From NCBI GenBank assembly GCA_030149205.1, contig JASBSB010000006.1, forward strand, positions 270,001-302,000: 32,000 bases of DNA. The letters are read 5' to 3'. Source of the stretch: Candidatus Heimdallarchaeota archaeon (GTDB taxonomy: Archaea; Asgardarchaeota; Heimdallarchaeia; Heimdallarchaeales; Kariarchaeaceae). Below the pieces are notes generated by a model, which worked only from the letters and a program-made list of their open reading frames with translations, was not told the origin of the DNA and ran no database searches. The position numbers were made by a program, and so were the translations under genes. The first letter of the stretch is position 1, and each line of letters opens with the position of its first letter. Below are positions 4,878 through 17,140 of this stretch, in pieces.

Positions 4878-5186
4878 ATTCAGTTTATCTGGAGTTTGTT
4901 TATTATTCAAGATCAGATATATTTTCTAAATAATGATTCTGAGCCATCCTTTAGCTTCTAATATAGCGAACGGTAGATTCTTAAGTTGGTCTTAGTATAC
5001 TTTGTAGAAATACGATGGAATTCCAGAATGGAGTTAGATATCCAGGGTGATTAAGTATGATTCCAATCTCTCATTAACAAATTATTTTGGTATTTACTTC
5101 TAAATCTCAGTAAATTGAATAGAAATAAATTAAGAAGGGTAAATAAATACTGACATGAAGAAAATACTACTTTTCGACCTAAAGTT

Positions 5187-5200
5187 GAAAAGGTTTATAT
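5187..5200 (+). promoter_or_regulatory. Putative BRE/TATA of the first vapBC operon
   Basis: GAAAAGGTTTATAT; TTTATA lies 25-30 nt upstream of ATG 5224. Confidence 0.55.
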
Positions 5201-5223
5201 TTCAAAACATCAATAATTTAATT

Positions 5224-5481
5224 ATGCCAACAACCATTAAAATTAGTGACGCATCAAAAAATAAGTTAGAGAAGCTGAGAGCAAGGCTATTATTACAGGG
5301 AAGAAAATTTAAGCAGGAAGAATTAATAGACTTTGTAATATCATTGGCTGAAACAAGCCCATTAATCCTAAGCAAAGGAAAGTATAAAGGTTTATCTAAG
5401 GAAGAGAGGAAAGAATTTCTTGCATTTTCTTTTGAAGGTGGAGGTTCAGATAAGTCTATTGATGAGGAAGTATATTCATAA
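5224..5481 (+). CDS. vapB: VapB-type antitoxin with an RHH-like N-terminus
   Basis: MPTTIKISDASKNKLEKL beta-helix-helix pattern; abuts a PIN gene; start moved from 5155 to 5224 on promoter spacing. Confidence 0.72.
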   Translation: MPTTIKISDASKNKLEKLRARLLLQGRKFKQEELIDFVISLAETSPLILSKGKYKGLSKEERKEFLAFSFEGGGSDKSIDEEVYS

Positions 5482-5913
5482 ATGATCGTTCTTGACACCA
5501 ATTTAATATTTGCAAAGTTTGCTTTGGGTGATGAAAACCATAAAAAGGCAAATGAAATTTTCAATGATATTCTTACTGGAAAGTTTGGACTTCCTATACT
5601 TCTAGACTATGTGTATAATGAAATACTAACATTAATTTATATAAGAACCAAAAACTTTGACCTGTGTATGAGGGTTGAAAAATTCCTTAAGAATTATTTT
5701 AATAAAGATGTTATTAGTTTTGTCCAAACACCTAGCGAGCTATTCTGGAAAGCAAATCAGACGTTTCTGAAGCAAGAGATTATCAACCAGAAACGGTTTT
5801 TATCATTTACTGATTCAATTATTGGAGAAATGGCTATTTGGTTAAACAGTTCCTACATAGGCACATTTGATGGACAATTTTATAGATTTGGAATTGAAGT
5901 TATACCAAAATAA
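5482..5913 (+). CDS. vapC: VapC PIN-domain ribonuclease toxin
   Basis: MIVLDTNLIFA, D-x-x-H-x-x-A, YNEIL, LSFTDS and TFD acidic PIN motifs; stop-start coupled to the antitoxin. Confidence 0.9.
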   Translation: MIVLDTNLIFAKFALGDENHKKANEIFNDILTGKFGLPILLDYVYNEILTLIYIRTKNFDLCMRVEKFLKNYFNKDVISFVQTPSELFWKANQTFLKQEIINQKRFLSFTDSIIGEMAIWLNSSYIGTFDGQFYRFGIEVIPK

Positions 5914-8412: not shown

Positions 8413-9252
8413 ATGAACCTGAATGATATTACCCCAATTACCAAAAGTCAAATCAAAAATGATAATATAAACATTGATTTATTTGGAATAGATGATCAAT
8501 ATAACACACTAGAGAATTTTGTCAATAATGCCTTTGATAGCAAAAGGGAATATACTACATTGTACCAGAAACTTGACTTTTATAATAATATACTTCTTAC
8601 TGGTCTGCCTGGAACTGGAAAAACTCGTTCTGTTTATAAATTGCTTTCAAATCAAAAAAATAATGTAAGGTTATATCAATTAAAGCTTGGAACATTGTTG
8701 CACGCCGATATGGGTAAAACTTCACAGATAATTGAAGACCTCTTCAATAGTATTAGAGATCAAGCTTCACCTCAAAAAAAAATGATTATTTTACTTGATG
8801 AAATTGATTCTATTGGACTTTCAAGGTTTAATTCAAGTGTATTAGATGGTATTCGAAGAGCTTTAATTTCATTAATGATAGAACTGGATAAAAACATTAT
8901 GAGGAAATATATCGTTTTTATCGGCATTTCAAATATACCTGAGTTCCTAGACCCTGCACTTGTTAGAAGATTTACTTTAAGAATCGAATACCCAGATGTA
9001 ATTTCAAAGAGAGAACTAAAGAAATTTCTCAACTATCTTGTTGAAGAAGATTGGGAATTTGAAAAAATCCATAAAATTGTTCAAGAAAAAGGATATACTC
9101 CCTCAGATATTAAAAACTTGTTTCAAAGGATATTAGTAGAAAATAAGTTTAACGAAGATATAAATTGGAATCAATCTTTGATTATAAAATTGCGTGATAG
9201 CGTATCTACAAAAGAATTAATGCAATTTTCAAAAGATAAATATTCTATATAA
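8413..9252 (+). CDS. Single-domain AAA+ ATPase (classic AAA clade)
   Basis: ILLTGLPGTGKT (Walker A); ILLDEIDSIG (Walker B); SN-PEFLDPALVRRF (second region of homology with arginine fingers). Confidence 0.92.
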   Translation: MNLNDITPITKSQIKNDNINIDLFGIDDQYNTLENFVNNAFDSKREYTTLYQKLDFYNNILLTGLPGTGKTRSVYKLLSNQKNNVRLYQLKLGTLLHADMGKTSQIIEDLFNSIRDQASPQKKMIILLDEIDSIGLSRFNSSVLDGIRRALISLMIELDKNIMRKYIVFIGISNIPEFLDPALVRRFTLRIEYPDVISKRELKKFLNYLVEEDWEFEKIHKIVQEKGYTPSDIKNLFQRILVENKFNEDINWNQSLIIKLRDSVSTKELMQFSKDKYSI

Positions 9253-10280: not shown

Positions 10281-10679
10281 TTGAAATATTTCATTGACAC
10301 ATCGTTTCTATTTGCAATAGCTAGTGAGGATGACAAATATCACAAGAGAGCAGTTAACAAATTAAAATCTTTTAGAAAAACTGAAAACATCCAATTAATT
10401 ACTTCAGATTATGTAATTGATGAATTACTGTTGTTATTAATGAAATACCAGAACATGAACAATGCAATACATTGGAGTGAAATCATTATGGAAGGTAAAT
10501 TCTGTTCCTTATATTTCTGCAACAATATGATTTTCAATTCTGCAATCAGTATCTTTCAATCTGAAGCAGATGAAAGAAAGCCATTAACATTGACAGATGC
10601 TGTTGTATATGTTTCCAGCAAAACATTATCTTGTGATGAAATTTTGACCTATGATAATAGGTTGAAAAATTATCGATAG
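10281..10679 (+). CDS. vapC: VapC PIN-domain ribonuclease toxin
   Basis: YFIDTSFLFA, DD-x-H-x-x-A, TSDYVIDEL, LTLTDA and TYD motifs; TTG start directly after the antitoxin stop. Confidence 0.9.
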   Translation: MKYFIDTSFLFAIASEDDKYHKRAVNKLKSFRKTENIQLITSDYVIDELLLLLMKYQNMNNAIHWSEIIMEGKFCSLYFCNNMIFNSAISIFQSEADERKPLTLTDAVVYVSSKTLSCDEILTYDNRLKNYR

Positions 10680-11641: not shown

Positions 11642-12487
11642 ATGCAGTACTCTCTTGATAAACTGAAAGAATTAGGATTACTACTTGAACATGAGAATGT
11701 TGCAGATTTTCGATCTGATTTTTATAATACTAAACTCTGGGCTGAAGTATTTTGGAGTAGAAAATATTCTCATGAAAGGAGACTGGATCCAGAGATTGAT
11801 GTTGTGAAAAAATATAACCCAAAAAAGGTTCTTGAAATAGGGTCTGGATATGGAAGGTTTACCTTGAAACTTACTCGGATACTTGAAGATGCATCAATAC
11901 ATGGTGTGGAAACGTGTACACATTTTAAGAAATATGTTGACATTTATACTAAAGATAATCCAAAGTTGATGGATGTTACATTTTCCTTTGTTGATTTTTT
12001 CAATAATGAGGAATTTACTGAAAAGAACTTTGATCAAATCATATTACCCATGAATACACTGTCATCATTTCCATTAGAGACTTATCCTCAAATTTTTGAA
12101 AAGGTAAAGGATCACCTAACCAAAGATGGGAAGTTTATATTCAGTACCCACAAGGGTTCTCCGGAGAAAATTGAAGAATATTTGAAACATTATTTGGAAA
12201 GGTATTCATCTGAAATGATTTTAAGGTGGGGGATTGATAGAATACTGGTTGAGGATTTCAATACAGATTATGAGGTTAAAAATTATGGTGCAAAGATCAA
12301 TTCTTTGAAAGTGAATACACGATTTGATTTCAATTATTCAATTATTGAACGAAATTTATTCACATTCCATAGAGAATACATTTTTCACGAATTCTTTGAT
12401 AATTATATTCGGAAATTGAATTTTGAAATTGTTGAAAAGGATTCATCATCACATTCTAATGTTTATGTGTTGCAAGCGATTAGGTAA
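11642..12487 (+). CDS. Class I SAM-dependent methyltransferase
   Basis: Motif I VLEIGSGYGR; downstream VDFF, FDQIILP and LTKDGKFIF motifs. Confidence 0.87.
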   Translation: MQYSLDKLKELGLLLEHENVADFRSDFYNTKLWAEVFWSRKYSHERRLDPEIDVVKKYNPKKVLEIGSGYGRFTLKLTRILEDASIHGVETCTHFKKYVDIYTKDNPKLMDVTFSFVDFFNNEEFTEKNFDQIILPMNTLSSFPLETYPQIFEKVKDHLTKDGKFIFSTHKGSPEKIEEYLKHYLERYSSEMILRWGIDRILVEDFNTDYEVKNYGAKINSLKVNTRFDFNYSIIERNLFTFHREYIFHEFFDNYIRKLNFEIVEKDSSSHSNVYVLQAIR

Positions 12488-12554
12488 TATATTTTTTGAA
12501 TTTACCTTTTGTTAATATAGTAATACAGTTCATTGTGTACCCCTTTAACAGACT

Positions 12555-12949
12555 GTGGAAAGTGATATAACACCATCTGATTGCCCAGTTGAGACGTATT
12601 ATGCTGACAAGTCCTACTGCGGGGAGAATATTATCGGGCTGCTGGCTCAGGAGTCAGTTCAGACGTCGATCCCCAAGAAATCAAATCTCAGGGTTTATAG
12701 AACTTCCAGTCCCATAGATAGAATGGGTCGGTTGCAAAGCCAACATCTAGGCATTTACAGGAGAAACTGCCGGGTGTACCTCAGAGCCAAAGCTGAGCAG
12801 GTATTTGGTTACCTGAAACAGCGAACACGCCTCCTGCGGGATCACAAGGCTAAAAACAAGTAGAAGACCTTTATGTGCTCTGTGGTCTGGTAAAACCTCA
12901 GAATCCGAGCTCAGGGGTGATCCCAGTGTAAACGAATTTTGGGACAAGC
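12555..12949 (+). mobile_element. IS5-like (DDE_Tnp_1) insertion-sequence relic: transposase 3' fragment plus right terminal repeat
   Basis: YADKSY, SIPKKSN, Y-x-R-x-x-AEQVFGYLK; the frame continues through stops at 12861 and 12891 to VVW*NL, ending at TGA 12920; putative end GAATTTTGGGACAAGC at 12934-12949; locally GC-richer. Confidence 0.78.
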
Positions 12950-13000
12950 TTATTAGAAGAAAAAAATATAAATACTTTCATTTAATAGTTTGTTTCTGCA

Positions 13001-14452
13001 TTATAAAAGTTGTGTTACCCTTTTCAGTCCATTTAATAATACTGGTGACTTTGGATTGATTGATAATCCTCTTCCCAAAATTTTTTTTGCATAAATAAAA
13101 TCTTTCATATCAATTAGTAACCACCCAAATCCTCCTAAAGCATATTCATTATTTGGTTCAAATGTTAAAACCTGTTCATAAATTCTTTTAGATTTTTCAA
13201 AGTTTCCGATTTTTCTAAGTGCAGCCGCATAGCCGATTTGTGTAACAATTCCTTCTACACTATTCAATGATTGCTTTAGTAATAATCTTTCATAGAGAAA
13301 AATAGCATCTTGATATTTTTGCATTGATTTTTTCAATGCAGCAGTTGCAATTAAAACAGCACTATGGTTTGGATCTATAGATAAGCCTCTTTCTAATATA
13401 TTTTCAGCTTCATTTAGTTTTCGAATATCTCTATAACAACCACCTAGACTTGCATAAGAATCTAGCTCTGATTCATTAATTTCAATTGCTTTTTTGTGGT
13501 AGCTAATGGCTTTTTGATAATTTTTAATACGTCTATGCAATATACCTAAATGCGAATATATTATACTTTTGTCCGGATATTCCTCGATCAATAATTCCAT
13601 TTTTCTATTTGCTTCTTCAAAATCTCCTATTTGAAATGATGTAAGTGCATACATCCATTTAACGGCAAATAAATTCTCTTGATTTAGATTATCAATTTCA
13701 ATCTGAGAAAAAATCTCTAATGATTTTGAAGGATTACCAACTAAGAAGTATAGATTACCTCTTGCAATTTGCCAATCAATTGGCCATTCTTCCTCAGTGT
13801 GTTTTCTCAACCACTGTAATAATGTTTCGAATTCTTCTATAATTTCATTCCAAAGGATTATTTTTGTGTCTGAAGTTTCAATGTATAAAAACTCAGGAAT
13901 TTCTTCAAGAATATACTTTATATTCTTCTCAACAATTGATCTTATTTTTTTTCCTTTTTTTGATGTTACGTCATACCCATCCTTATAAAACCAAAATACA
14001 AAGGTACTAATTTTATGCTTGGAATAAGGACTAGACAGAATATTTCTGTAACTAAAATTGATTGAATAAGTGTTTTGTTCATTTAATTTCTGAAGTTTAT
14101 CTTCTAACTCTTCATTGATATTTTGCCAATAACAAATCCCATCTTTTTGAGTTAAATCAACCACACATAAAAATATTGGATTTTCATGATTTGCCCAATG
14201 TTTTAGCCATTCAGTTTTGAAAGAATATGTTAATTGATTATGTTGATTGTACTTTGGTGATTTAGTTCCTTTTATCTGTACTTTAAAAGCATTGTATGTC
14301 CCAATTTCCTCATCAATTGGTATCTTCACATAAAGATCTTCACCAAAGTCTTGGTTCATTTCTTCAACAACCCAATTCCATTTCTGTAAAATAGAAATTA
14401 CATAATTAACTGCGTTTCGTTCTGTATTATACGTATTATTTACTTTTGGCAT
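13001..14452 (-). CDS. DUF4365 (restriction endonuclease-like) N-terminal domain fused to about 7 TPR repeats
   Basis: ERNAVNYV...QDFGEDLYV...FKVQIKGT is the DUF4365 D-G-D...QxK pattern; the C-terminal half has ~34-aa repeats (e.g. YSHLGILHRRIKNYQKAISYHKKAIEINES). ATG 14452 preferred over GTG 14461. Confidence 0.85.
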   Translation of the reverse strand: MPKVNNTYNTERNAVNYVISILQKWNWVVEEMNQDFGEDLYVKIPIDEEIGTYNAFKVQIKGTKSPKYNQHNQLTYSFKTEWLKHWANHENPIFLCVVDLTQKDGICYWQNINEELEDKLQKLNEQNTYSINFSYRNILSSPYSKHKISTFVFWFYKDGYDVTSKKGKKIRSIVEKNIKYILEEIPEFLYIETSDTKIILWNEIIEEFETLLQWLRKHTEEEWPIDWQIARGNLYFLVGNPSKSLEIFSQIEIDNLNQENLFAVKWMYALTSFQIGDFEEANRKMELLIEEYPDKSIIYSHLGILHRRIKNYQKAISYHKKAIEINESELDSYASLGGCYRDIRKLNEAENILERGLSIDPNHSAVLIATAALKKSMQKYQDAIFLYERLLLKQSLNSVEGIVTQIGYAAALRKIGNFEKSKRIYEQVLTFEPNNEYALGGFGWLLIDMKDFIYAKKILGRGLSINPKSPVLLNGLKRVTQLL

Positions 14453-14642
14453 ACTTATCACTTCATTAATTCTGGTTATTAATTAGATAATGAGCATAAT
14501 TGCACCCTTTTCATCATTAATTCAAAGAACCCCATATTAATAAAAATTGTTAACATTATTAAAAATACTCTTTTATTGGATTTGTTAATTTGATCCTTTT
14601 AATGAAGATTTTATAAAATAAAAGAGTAAAATTTTGAACTAT

Positions 14643-14713
14643 AATTAGTTTACACAGGAATCACCCCCTGAGCTTGAGGGTTTAGTGCTTGTCCAAGGAG
14701 TTTTTGAACAAGC
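14643..14713 (-). mobile_element. Second, inverted and highly deleted fragment of the same IS, plus a 27-bp element with two terminal repeats
   Basis: The reverse complement of 14643-14673 (GCTCAGGGGGTGATTCCTGTGTAAACTAATT) matches 12908-12938 (GCTCAGGGGTGATCCCAGTGTAAACGAATT); 14687-14713 reads GCTTGTCCAA-GGAGTTT-TTGAACAAGC. Confidence 0.7.
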
Positions 14714-14789
14714 TTATTATAAATTAAGAGTACACCTTTGAAAGATTAGAATGCAGAATATTTAATTACATAAAGACCAAATATTACAT

Positions 14790-15176
14790 GTGGATATTAA
14801 TTTAGTTTATCACAATCTGGCAAATTCTCAACCAAATTTGTTAAAACTTCAATTTCAGGAGCAATTGAAGAATATAATCTCTCTCTGCAAACAGAGTGAT
14901 CTTCTATTAGAAAACAATCATCCTGAGCATTTAATAGGAATATTGAAAATCAAATTTCAGGAGTTTACTAATTTTATAGTATTAGTGGAATATGTACAAA
15001 AGAAGGATGATAATATATCATATGATCATAGAGATATCAGAGTGATCTGGCTAGTTAATCCAGAAACCGAAAAACCAATTGAACTAGAACTAACATATGA
15101 TCGGGGTTATTGGAACCAATTTGGAATTTATAATTGGAAGGAATTCAAGTTGCAAATAATGAAAAAGGTCAATTAA
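14790..15176 (+). CDS. Hypothetical protein, first gene of a putative three-gene operon
   Basis: 128-aa ORF, GTG start with TTTAAT 24-29 nt upstream; its end overlaps the longest start of the next ORF. Confidence 0.65.
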   Translation: MDINLVYHNLANSQPNLLKLQFQEQLKNIISLCKQSDLLLENNHPEHLIGILKIKFQEFTNFIVLVEYVQKKDDNISYDHRDIRVIWLVNPETEKPIELELTYDRGYWNQFGIYNWKEFKLQIMKKVN

Positions 15177-15562
15177 AACTAATCAGAGGATTAAACTTGA
15201 CATGTAATAACAATAATGATAATTTTCCTTACTTTTGGGAAAAAATCAATCCAACAATATATCACACAATTTTATTGATTGCTGGTTTTTTAAGGGACTT
15301 AAACCTATTTACATCATTTCAATCATATTTTCATGGTTCAATAACTTTAAAGAACCACATTCCAAAAGATATCGATTTAATAATAGTTTGCAATGATAAA
15401 GTAAAGACAATATTTCAGAGAATGTTTATCAAGTTACAGAAGGAAGTACCAATTCAACTAGATGTGATTTACTTCAATAGAGTAGAATTTTCTAAAGCAC
15501 TCGAAAATCCAAACCACCTTCTGAATACTAATAAGTCTATAATTGAAATATCACTTAATTAA
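15134..15562 (+). CDS. Minimal nucleotidyltransferase (pol-beta superfamily, MNT-like)
   Basis: YFHGS...KDIDLIIV (GS plus DxD) and third aspartate in QLDVIYF; the exact start is uncertain. Confidence 0.82.
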   Translation: MEGIQVANNEKGQLKLIRGLNLTCNNNNDNFPYFWEKINPTIYHTILLIAGFLRDLNLFTSFQSYFHGSITLKNHIPKDIDLIIVCNDKVKTIFQRMFIKLQKEVPIQLDVIYFNRVEFSKALENPNHLLNTNKSIIEISLN

Positions 15563-17140
15563 ATGCATTCATATCATCAAATCTCGCCATTGCAAGCTTG
15601 GTTTCGATTTTTACTAGATTATACTTCATCAATACACGAAGGTGAGAATAGGCTTCAAGGAAACAGGAACCGCAAGACAAAATTTTACTTATTTTCTTTG
15701 GAAAACTTATTTCTATTAAATAGGATTGCAAAAGACAAAAAAATTGATTCGTTTGTTTCAAGCAAAATTGATGCAAAAATTGACGCCATACTTGATATTT
15801 TACAAAATCCACCAACAACCAATTATTATCAGGAATGTAATCCTCATAGCAATTCGTATGAAAAAATTCCTGATTGGCCATGTTATTGGATAATGAGAGA
15901 ACTATATTATCGTTTTCTTGAAAAAAAAATCGGAGAAGAACGTTTTAATCAAAATACCAGATTAATTTCATCAATTGATAATTACTTGTATACACGTATA
16001 CCAGAAATTGGATCGAAGTTCAATATAATTTCAAAACCAGCAATATTTATAGCAGTTTTTGGCTATAGTGTATATGATGTAATTTCGAAGTTTGGTAAAC
16101 CAAAATATTATCAAACAGCTGTAGGTTTTAGAGATAATTGTCATAATTATATAATCGATTTTATAGAAAATCTCAGTCAAAATATCACTGAGGTAGATTC
16201 TGAAAAAAGTATTATACTACACTCGATGTTAATTGATTTCTTAGTGAATAATCATGGTAGTGCTTATCAAGATCAAATTAATGAATTAAAGTCAAATATA
16301 GAAATAATAATAAACGAATTGGATAGGATAGCTGATGTACCTGCTGCATTAAGTCTGCTTGTTGATGTCGAGAATGATTTGTATGGAAAATTATTAAAGA
16401 AATCGGTTGAAATTTATAAAAATGATTTTAGTGGTTCTGCTTATACTAAAACAGCAGAACCTGCATATATTTATATCTTAGATACACTTAATACTAATGA
16501 GAAAAATTTAGTTGATGAAGTTATTTGGCTTTTTGAACCATCAAAGCATGAATTTAATAGTTACATCGTTCATCATACTATTCGAATATTAAATATGATT
16601 AATAGTAATAGTTCTATGCTAACCCTAATAAATACAGAAAAAACAAAAATTAAAGAAAAGTACTTTAGAGACCATTTCCAGTCGCATTTTGAACTATTAG
16701 GAAATAGCTCTGGAACTTTTTCTATTAGTGCAGAAGACCCCAATAGAAGGGAGGGTTTTTCAGACCTTGTGATTAAAGACAATATAATAAATAGTCAAAT
16801 GACTATTAGTTGTAAGGTATGGAAAAGAAATTTTGATGACCATCCACCAGTATATCAATTAATCGGTGATATGGGTACACATGAAACTGTAGGGATACTA
16901 TTTATGGTTAATAATAGCATTAAAAAGAAAATTGATGAAGAATACATTGAACTACTAATTAAAAATCATCAATTATATGTTGAAAATTCATTTAAGGAAA
17001 TTAATAAAAATAATGGTGTTTCCCATTATTTGTCAAAATATTACATTGATGATGTAGTTTATACCATTCATCACATTATTTTCAATATTGGCCCTTTCAT
17101 TAAAACTGAAAATCCCTATGAAAAAGTTAGAAAGAAATAA
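15563..17140 (+). CDS. Large protein with an unknown helical N-terminus and a C-terminal PD-(D/E)xK nuclease-like domain
   Basis: EKYFRDHF...SAEDPNRREGFSDLVIK...TISCKVW...VYQLIG...GILFMVN matches the E..RD / G.sD / ExK-W / QL pattern, but ExK reads SxK; TAA-ATG abuts the NTase gene. Confidence 0.7.
   Translation: MHSYHQISPLQAWFRFLLDYTSSIHEGENRLQGNRNRKTKFYLFSLENLFLLNRIAKDKKIDSFVSSKIDAKIDAILDILQNPPTTNYYQECNPHSNSYEKIPDWPCYWIMRELYYRFLEKKIGEERFNQNTRLISSIDNYLYTRIPEIGSKFNIISKPAIFIAVFGYSVYDVISKFGKPKYYQTAVGFRDNCHNYIIDFIENLSQNITEVDSEKSIILHSMLIDFLVNNHGSAYQDQINELKSNIEIIINELDRIADVPAALSLLVDVENDLYGKLLKKSVEIYKNDFSGSAYTKTAEPAYIYILDTLNTNEKNLVDEVIWLFEPSKHEFNSYIVHHTIRILNMINSNSSMLTLINTEKTKIKEKYFRDHFQSHFELLGNSSGTFSISAEDPNRREGFSDLVIKDNIINSQMTISCKVWKRNFDDHPPVYQLIGDMGTHETVGILFMVNNSIKKKIDEEYIELLIKNHQLYVENSFKEINKNNGVSHYLSKYYIDDVVYTIHHIIFNIGPFIKTENPYEKVRKK

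Follow-up and report, generated by a model that had tools for sequence, protein, structure and literature searches.

What kind of system is encoded by three co-oriented open reading frames (ORFs) that lie close together in the genome of a Candidatus Heimdallarchaeota archaeon? The locus is situated within a 32,000-nucleotide stretch of DNA, referred to here as the window (contig JASBSB010000006.1, positions 270,001 to 302,000; G000:C2:270001-302000), of a 3.3-Mb genome with a GC content of 35.6%, which kinship analysis puts in one phylum (Asgard) with Ca. Lokiarchaeum ossiferum. An earlier note had proposed a new defence operon comprising an unknown protein, a minimal nucleotidyltransferase (MNT) and a large protein with a nuclease-like C-terminus, and its three ORFs are indeed present on the + strand at 14790-15176, 15134-15562 and 15563-17140. 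In this study, the comparison of related loci showed an obligatory link, with translational coupling, between a catalytically intact MNT, the product of ORF2, and a protein with a probable toroid domain, the product of ORF3, and a two-gene module is well supported. The reading that we prefer, at a probability of roughly 0.55, is that ORF2 and ORF3 would form a conflict module of the toxin–antitoxin (TA) or abortive-infection type, in which the MNT, via the toroid domain, holds a PD-(D/E)xK effector off by nucleotidylation, ORF1 being unrelated to the module.

Organization of the Locus

ORF1 (14790..15176, + strand) has a GTG as its sole start and encodes 128 aa, and ORF3 (15563..17140, + strand) begins with an ATG and encodes 525 aa. 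ORF2, on the same strand, has no in-frame ATG and can begin only at a TTG, either at 15134 (15134..15562, 142 aa) or at 15197 (15197..15562, 121 aa). The latter is the start that gene callers chose where this DNA had been assembled independently, and the family alignment of the nucleotidyltransferases (NTases) also agrees with it. Because ORF2 is taken to start at TTG 15197, the overlap of ORF1 and ORF2 described previously is lost, and a gap of 20 nt separates the two. The abutment of ORF2 and ORF3 stands, as does the TAA-ATG coupling that had been read from it: the TAA occupies 15560-15562 and the ATG of ORF3 follows at 15563.

ORF2 and ORF3 share one frame with a single TAA between them, and a fusion by read-through across this codon was considered and rejected, since at seven other loci the NTase and large-protein genes overlap by 14–29 nt out of frame. 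The codon log-odds scores (0.112 for ORF1, 0.104 for ORF2 and 0.156 for ORF3) place all three ORFs inside the coding range of the genome (mean 0.170, 5th percentile 0.087), although such scores are favoured by the absence of stops, which is a property of any ORF.

Conservation of the MNT–Toroid Gene Pair

By its sequence, ORF2 is an MNT of the Pol-beta superfamily with intact catalytic residues. The complete NTase triad claimed for it could be located, with H-G-S at 15332-15340, D-I-D at 15368-15376 and the third D at 15461-15463, and all six aligned NTases share the H-G-S, the D-x-D and the third D without exception. On its own, the window ORF2 gave marginal Pfam matches (DUF6932, E 0.012; Polbeta, E 0.032; NTP_transf_2, E 0.081), and a word-index homology search with it returned only the window's own protein. 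In the alignment, it is 23–31% identical to five small ORFs in the same position of related loci, and several ORF2 homologues pass Pfam Polbeta. A profile of the six-NTase family matched the solved MNTs 2rff (E 3.4e-6), 1ylq (AF0614) and 1no5 (HI0073), the last being the MNT of a HEPN-MNT pair. The NTases of the family are 108–157 aa long.

Homologues of ORF3 were sought by an exhaustive phmmer search over 1.84 billion representatives, which gave 30 proteins at E <= 1e-3; a word-index search with ORF3 returned only ORF3 itself, and neither 40 close relatives (0/40) nor the own genome, searched for a paralogue, contained a homologue. P0003 (490 aa; locus L004), which is the closest full-length homologue, P0006 (500 aa) and P0007 (498 aa) are related over nearly the full length, and P0014 (517 aa) matches residues 74-351, in the N-terminal part, while most relatives share residues ~326-515 only.

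The pair was then surveyed in the contigs encoding relatives, in related loci and by genome searches, with domain hidden Markov models (HMMs) run over all ORFs of those loci. An MNT gene was found directly upstream on the same strand, overlapping by 14–29 nt or abutting, in 8/8 distinct toroid-domain proteins. These are ORF3 of the window, where the genes abut; P0003; P0006, present as one sequence in five contigs (L005-L008 and L014); P0007 of Ca. Lokiarchaeum ossiferum Loki-B35 (L012, CP104013), with a 17-nt overlap; the toroid-domain proteins of L016 and L023; P0014 (L034), whose upstream ORF is cut by the contig end but is recognized by the NTase HMM (E 6e-8); and a 461-aa protein from the same class (L029, genome G074), whose gene overlaps that of a 157-aa Polbeta NTase by 29 nt. 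The last protein has the toroid N-domain (E 5e-9) and an unrelated C-terminal region, which may represent an effector swap. This cysteine-containing C-terminal region (gene at 1486-2871 of G074:C47) has CENC...ECW followed by FEIGD...VIKSGK, reminiscent of DUF4365-type motifs, and the protein gives no Pfam match.

Conversely, several proteins have the PD-(D/E)xK domain but no MNT beside them: P0004 (476 aa; L009), for which the 793 nt upstream contain no NTase ORF, the TPR fusions P0008 and P0020 (P0010 being weakly TPR), one AbiTii fusion and short forms of 190–300 aa. Since L029 keeps the MNT and the toroid with another C-domain, and the nuclease domain occurs without the MNT, it is the toroid domain that the NTase accompanies, and the effector domain can be exchanged. 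This co-occurrence, in which the NTase follows the N-domain and not the nuclease domain, fits the earlier suggestion of an NTase acting on, or by way of, the N-terminal region of the large protein. The proposed conservation of a three-gene order, however, was not supported, as only ORF2 and ORF3 recur and ORF1 was found nowhere else. The distribution is sparse (matches at E <= 1e-5 in 5/400 genomes of the phylum, full-length in the window's genome and L. ossiferum only), and such patchiness is as expected for accessory defence genes.

Domain Architecture of the Large Protein

The N-domain of ORF3 (15563..16597, + strand; residues 1-345) was assigned from the AlphaFold2 model, VIA-align and the domain HMM. 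In the whole-ORF3 model, built on a 28-row alignment with a predicted local distance difference test score (pLDDT) of 78 and a predicted template modelling score (pTM) of 0.67, residues 1-345 are all-helical and residues 350-510 are alpha/beta. When residues 6-320 were compared by VIA-align, (alpha/alpha)6 toroids filled all top 50 rows; the best match was the GH76 mannanase 6shm (Z 16.2, root-mean-square deviation (rmsd) 4.1 A, 262 residues aligned), and the others included glucoamylases, the complement C3/C5 TED domains, CD109 and transcobalamin-like proteins. Foldseek leads were the C4b TED and transcobalamin at a probability of 0.9-0.99, and the full ORF3 model gave nothing against the PDB at E <= 1e-3. 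Tyrosine-phosphatase rows in Foldseek, for the full model and the C-domain, had an rmsd above 10 A and were disregarded. The modelled fold is graded as a probable (alpha/alpha)6 toroid, because Z ~14 is readily attained by helical models and the pLDDT over the N-domain is moderate.

The earlier note had asked about a HEPN, SAVED or CARF fold in this region, which is modelled instead as the toroid. The Rx4-6H motif of HEPN is not conserved in the N-domain, where the alignment of eight proteins (14–24% identity) has F118 and S137 as its sole invariant residues, and no HEPN family match was obtained in Pfam or PADLOC for ORF3 and 25 relatives, although absence from the fold list does not exclude the fold. 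As the domain is fast-evolving and has no conserved catalytic-looking residues, its sequence speaks in favour of a sensor or scaffold and against an enzyme.

The C-domain (16610..17140, + strand; residues ~350-515 plus the tail, with fold matches from ~326) is assigned to the PD-(D/E)xK restriction-endonuclease fold on the basis of Pfam matches of relatives, alignment and model. The motifs shared among relatives are E365 (16655-16657), FRD (R369), E391, D401 (16763-16765) and then (I/V)-E-F-K-I-W with K418 (16814-16816) and W420. Pfam PDDEXK_9 is matched by 6/26 family members and the PADLOC candidate PDC-S54 by four distant members (E down to 8e-9), in two of which, scanned individually, the match covers the equivalent region (model positions 270-378); the window ORF3 itself matches neither. 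Modelled alone, the C-domain reached pLDDT 87 and pTM 0.85, and VIA-align placed BamHI, BstYI and OkrAI on top (Z 6.7), followed by the CidB/CinB nuclease domains, McrC, EcoT38I, BglII, EcoRI, Card1 and Can2 (Z ~5), and CdiA-CT. These Z values are middling, although the list consists almost wholly of PD-(D/E)xK nucleases and is consistent with the sequence evidence. The restriction-endonuclease-like C-terminus recognized earlier is thus borne out by the modelled alpha-beta-beta-beta-alpha-beta core and by PDDEXK_9 in relatives. A Foldseek search of the C-domain against the PDB gave nothing at E <= 1e-3, and nothing but weak rows (TM <= 0.35 by query) came from a shape search of the ESM Atlas, a few of them with PDDEXK_3. 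A HEPN motif hidden in a helix of the C-domain (R369-x5-H375) was also considered and rejected, since the His is found in only 8/26 members; R369 is nearly invariant and lies on the first core helix of the restriction-endonuclease-fold domain.

Proposed Mechanism and Alternative Explanations

In type VII HEPN-MNT systems, the MNT poly-AMPylates its toxin and thereby neutralizes it. By analogy with these systems, we propose that the toroid would serve as partner of the MNT and as sensor, and the PD-(D/E)xK domain as an effector cutting nucleic acids. Produced in parallel with the large protein from the coupled genes, the MNT would bind the toroid domain and covalently nucleotidylate the large protein, for example by AMPylation, so that the nuclease is held off; loss of the modification, or capture of a viral ligand by the toroid, would then release the nuclease. 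Binding of the MNT to the large protein, the modification chemistry, the trigger, the nuclease target and the role in defence are points that we infer. A complex prediction for the NTase and the large protein scored 0.00, which counts neither for nor against binding. A wider claim, which we put forward tentatively, as possible, is that the MNT and the toroid represent a new pair of immune regulator and sensor, found mainly in Asgard archaea and combined with effectors that can be swapped. The toroid, as acceptor or substrate-binding partner, would here complete the minimal NTase in the place of HEPN.

Several observations weigh against the proposed module. The acid of the ExK motif is Ser416 (16808-16810) in the window ORF3, so that D401 and K418 are present without the canonical D...(D/E)xK triad, and ORF2 lacks a C-terminal segment of ~11 residues (consensus SLKKGYxILY) that is found in four of the five relatives. 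Because of these two features and the TTG-only starts of ORF2, the window copy may be attenuated or may work differently. The toroid assignment is weakened by pLDDT blocks of 52-88 in the N-domain and by the fact that the arrangement of helices alone often suffices for high Z values. With ~8 distinct loci known, the neighbourhood evidence is thin, and the data are equally compatible with a pure addiction (TA) role, a mobile-element function and antiviral defence.

The ExK is kept in the five other NTase-linked members with this domain, and SxK is unique to the window among them. A Ser in the same position is also found in three diverged relatives that have other architectures and no NTase (P0004, P0008 and P0012), with the rest of the motif kept (K418, W420, R/N). 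The change is either a recurrent non-canonical active site or a repeated inactivation, and the conserved E365 and E391 might compensate for it.

Taken at its worst, this change would make the window copy a decaying or domesticated remnant with a dead nuclease and a trimmed NTase, the locus being idle or serving a role other than that of a nuclease. The SxK of the window, the C-terminal deletion of its MNT, the non-ATG starts of both small ORFs and the debris of mobile elements around the locus are all in line with this explanation. However, all three ORFs run uninterrupted over their full length and have codon usage resembling that of coding sequence, the catalytic residues of the NTase are intact, the Ser variant recurs in relatives that have otherwise kept the motif, and E365, E391 and D401 remain, with which an alternative metal-binding set is possible. 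We consider a remnant unlikely.

A second explanation retains the gene pair and changes its working: upon triggering, the MNT would make a small nucleotide, and the toroid pocket would bind this product and switch the nuclease on, following the logic of cyclic-oligonucleotide-based anti-phage signalling (CBASS) and type III CRISPR. Proteins of the alpha/alpha toroid fold usually bind a small ligand in a pocket at the centre of the ring, and glycosidases, transcobalamin-like and TED proteins are those matched by ORF3; the C-domain resembles the ligand-activated nucleases Card1 and Can2; and the NTase of L005 matches the PADLOC oligonucleotide-cyclase model weakly (E 1.5e-4). Against these points, NTases of the present size have no helical acceptor-binding domain like that of the CD-NTases, the known MNTs modify proteins and are not known to make messengers, no pocket residues are conserved in the N-domain, and the tight translational coupling suggests a stoichiometric complex. 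Since the enzyme is small and the pocket residues are not conserved, this signalling scheme appears distinctly doubtful to us, and covalent control of the nuclease by the MNT is the likelier of the two.

ORF1 and the Upstream Region

The third explanation concerns ORF1, which the earlier note had regarded as a possible toxin or adaptor of the operon. ORF1 has no homologue in its own genome, in eight related loci or in an index of 5.8 billion proteins, and Pfam, NCBIfam, PADLOC and PHROGs assign it to no family. What lies upstream of the NTase varies from locus to locus (YgjP-like, C2H2 zinc-finger, Schlafen and unknown genes). The ESM-Atlas embedding of ORF1 is similar (0.92) to RelE/ParE-type toxin clusters, with 166/256 features in common, which by the statistics of the tool is a lead and not evidence. 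With no homologue in any related locus, the role of toxin or adaptor was not borne out as part of a conserved operon. ORF1 is probably a real gene, may be co-transcribed with the pair, and is best treated as a lineage-specific orphan outside the conserved module. An operon in which ORF1 works with the NTase and the large protein is therefore highly improbable, although ORF1 is co-oriented with the pair, ends 20 nt before it, has codon usage compatible with coding and shows the toxin-like embedding, because it is absent from every other locus, its position is taken by different genes there, and GTG is its only start.

The idea of one promoter for the three genes rested on a TATA-like box. The octamer ATTATAAA is present at 14716 (14716-14723), but it is weak evidence for a promoter, since 12 such TATA-like octamers are found on this strand in a 9.3-kb AT-rich island, and it coincides with the right edge of a remnant resembling a miniature inverted-repeat transposable element (MITE). 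A single promoter common to ORF1-ORF3 is possible. The MITE-like remnant (14628..14722, no strand assigned), 68 nt upstream of ORF1, consists of two degenerate inverted ends of the IS5-like insertion sequence (IS) of this genome: a blastn search with 14643-14674 matched IS ends at contig termini, and local alignments to IS ends were obtained in both orientations. A direct repeat of 82% links 12931-12958 and 14695-14722, and an IS5-like transposase fragment at 12542-12958 brackets, together with the remnant, the DUF4365-TPR gene described below. Contigs C1, C2, C8, C9, C10 and C12 have related IS copies at their ends, and it is thus this IS family that breaks the assembly.

Genomic Neighbourhoods of the Gene Pair

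The neighbourhoods of the pair, whose other loci are archaeal or come from sediment, are typical defence or TA islands. In the window, the locus lies in a stretch of 26–29% GC (~8–17 kb of the window), compared with 35.6% for the genome, and this low-GC island includes an AAA ATPase (8413-9252) and an S-adenosylmethionine-dependent methyltransferase (11642-12487). PIN-domain toxin genes are found in the window at 5155-5913, with an upstream partner of 108 aa that belongs to no known family, and at 10281-10679. Upstream of the pair lies a divergently oriented DUF4365-TPR gene (13001-14461, -), DUF4365 being restriction-endonuclease-like, which matches the PADLOC argonaute-associated restriction-endonuclease model at E 1.9e-10. 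The borders of the island could not be defined by same-genus synteny, in which the flanking phosphodiesterase is 32–34% identical and the DUF4365-TPR gene was not found with the query used. No Rfam match was obtained in the window, and PHROGs gave no significant match. Among the sequencing runs listed as containing this DNA there is no RNA run, the only one being the probable source sediment metagenome.

Among the related loci, P0003 lies, within the segment 709-5018 of L004, just downstream of Tn7-like rve and TniB genes and a gene for a 260-aa multi-C2H2 zinc-finger protein, and is followed by genes for a CAP12-PCTIR TIR protein and an NB-ARC/TPR STAND protein; this segment looks like the defence cargo of a transposon. 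L005 has a complete type I restriction–modification system (HsdM/S/R) and YgjP just upstream of the pair and HepT further on, and L016 has a TIR_2 gene downstream. In L012, an OLD-like AAA_15/AAA_21 ATPase and a Schlafen AlbA_2 protein are encoded upstream, and a DUF4365 protein and a HATPase-like protein downstream. DUF4365 thus stands beside the pair twice, fused to ~7 TPRs in the window and as a 387-aa protein in L012 (7156-8319, +), and this recurrence may point to a functional link or may be chance within defence islands.

Comparison with Known Systems

As the earlier note had held, the locus fits no known MNT-HEPN, AbiE or CBASS architecture, and the NTase with the large protein constitutes a conserved, so far unnamed pair in defence-island contexts. 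The novelty check proposed with that note agreed: PADLOC v2 gave no significant match for the window proteins, and Pfam and NCBIfam likewise pointed to no named system. No description of an MNT with a toroid-nuclease was found in the literature searched, the coverage of which was incomplete.

The closest known system is the type VII HEPN-MNT TA system (HI0073/HI0074, Shewanella SO_3165/SO_3166; PADLOC candidate PDC-M05). Both have an MNT of ~110–150 aa with GS...DxD...D, whose gene directly precedes that of the partner and is coupled to it, in an archaeal setting rich in defence or TA genes, and weak PDC-M05A matches were obtained here, PDC-M05 being described as an NTase plus HEPN. In contrast to the HEPN partner of ~130 aa, the present partner has ~460–525 aa and a modelled toroid plus PD-(D/E)xK domain with no conserved Rx4-6H, which predicts a metal-dependent nuclease rather than a HEPN ribonuclease (RNase). 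Single-protein sensor-nucleases, in which TPRs or another sensor are joined to PD-(D/E)xK (PDC-S54, PDDEXK_9), have a homologous C-domain, whereas TPR arrays or AbiTii replace the toroid and no NTase partner is present.

CBASS and AbiE likewise combine a Pol-beta-superfamily nucleotidyltransferase with an effector. The CD-NTases of CBASS, however, have ~300 or more residues and a helical C-domain, compared with 108–157 aa here, and no SAVED, STING or transmembrane effector is present; the window NTase did not match the PADLOC cyclase model, for which one homologue gave E 1.5e-4. The AbiEii (DUF1814) proteins of AbiE have ~250–300 aa and belong to another family, the AbiEi winged helix-turn-helix antitoxin is absent here, and gene sizes and order differ; no AbiEii or AbiEi match was found in Pfam or PADLOC for ORF1-3. 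A thematic parallel only is offered by the APE system (alpha-alpha toroid/ParA/effector), a computational proposal in which a TED-like toroid serves as the sensor of invaders and the effector is variable (bioRxiv 10.64898/2026.10.19.760177). Complement TED is also among the fold matches of ORF3, but the partner in APE is a ParA NTPase instead of an MNT, and the APE toroid protein ends in a C-terminal helix, whereas ORF3 ends in a fused nuclease. What is new here is the partner architecture of a putative MNT-controlled toxin or defence module, such modules being of a kind that is already known.

Implications

To our knowledge, MNTs are among the most abundant "dark matter" genes of archaea, and only their role beside HEPN RNases is understood. 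If the reading proposed here is true, the MNT would be a regulatory module of general use that can be combined with other toxins. On the wider, more tentative claim, the toroid would meet the need of an MNT for a partner in a second way, structurally unrelated to the first. One instance of the pair is in the cultivated Ca. L. ossiferum, which makes the pair testable, and a virus-host culture has been reported for this organism (bioRxiv 10.64898/2026.02.13.705702). The finding would, if true, add a candidate immune system to the Asgard archaea, whose defence repertoire is poorly known.

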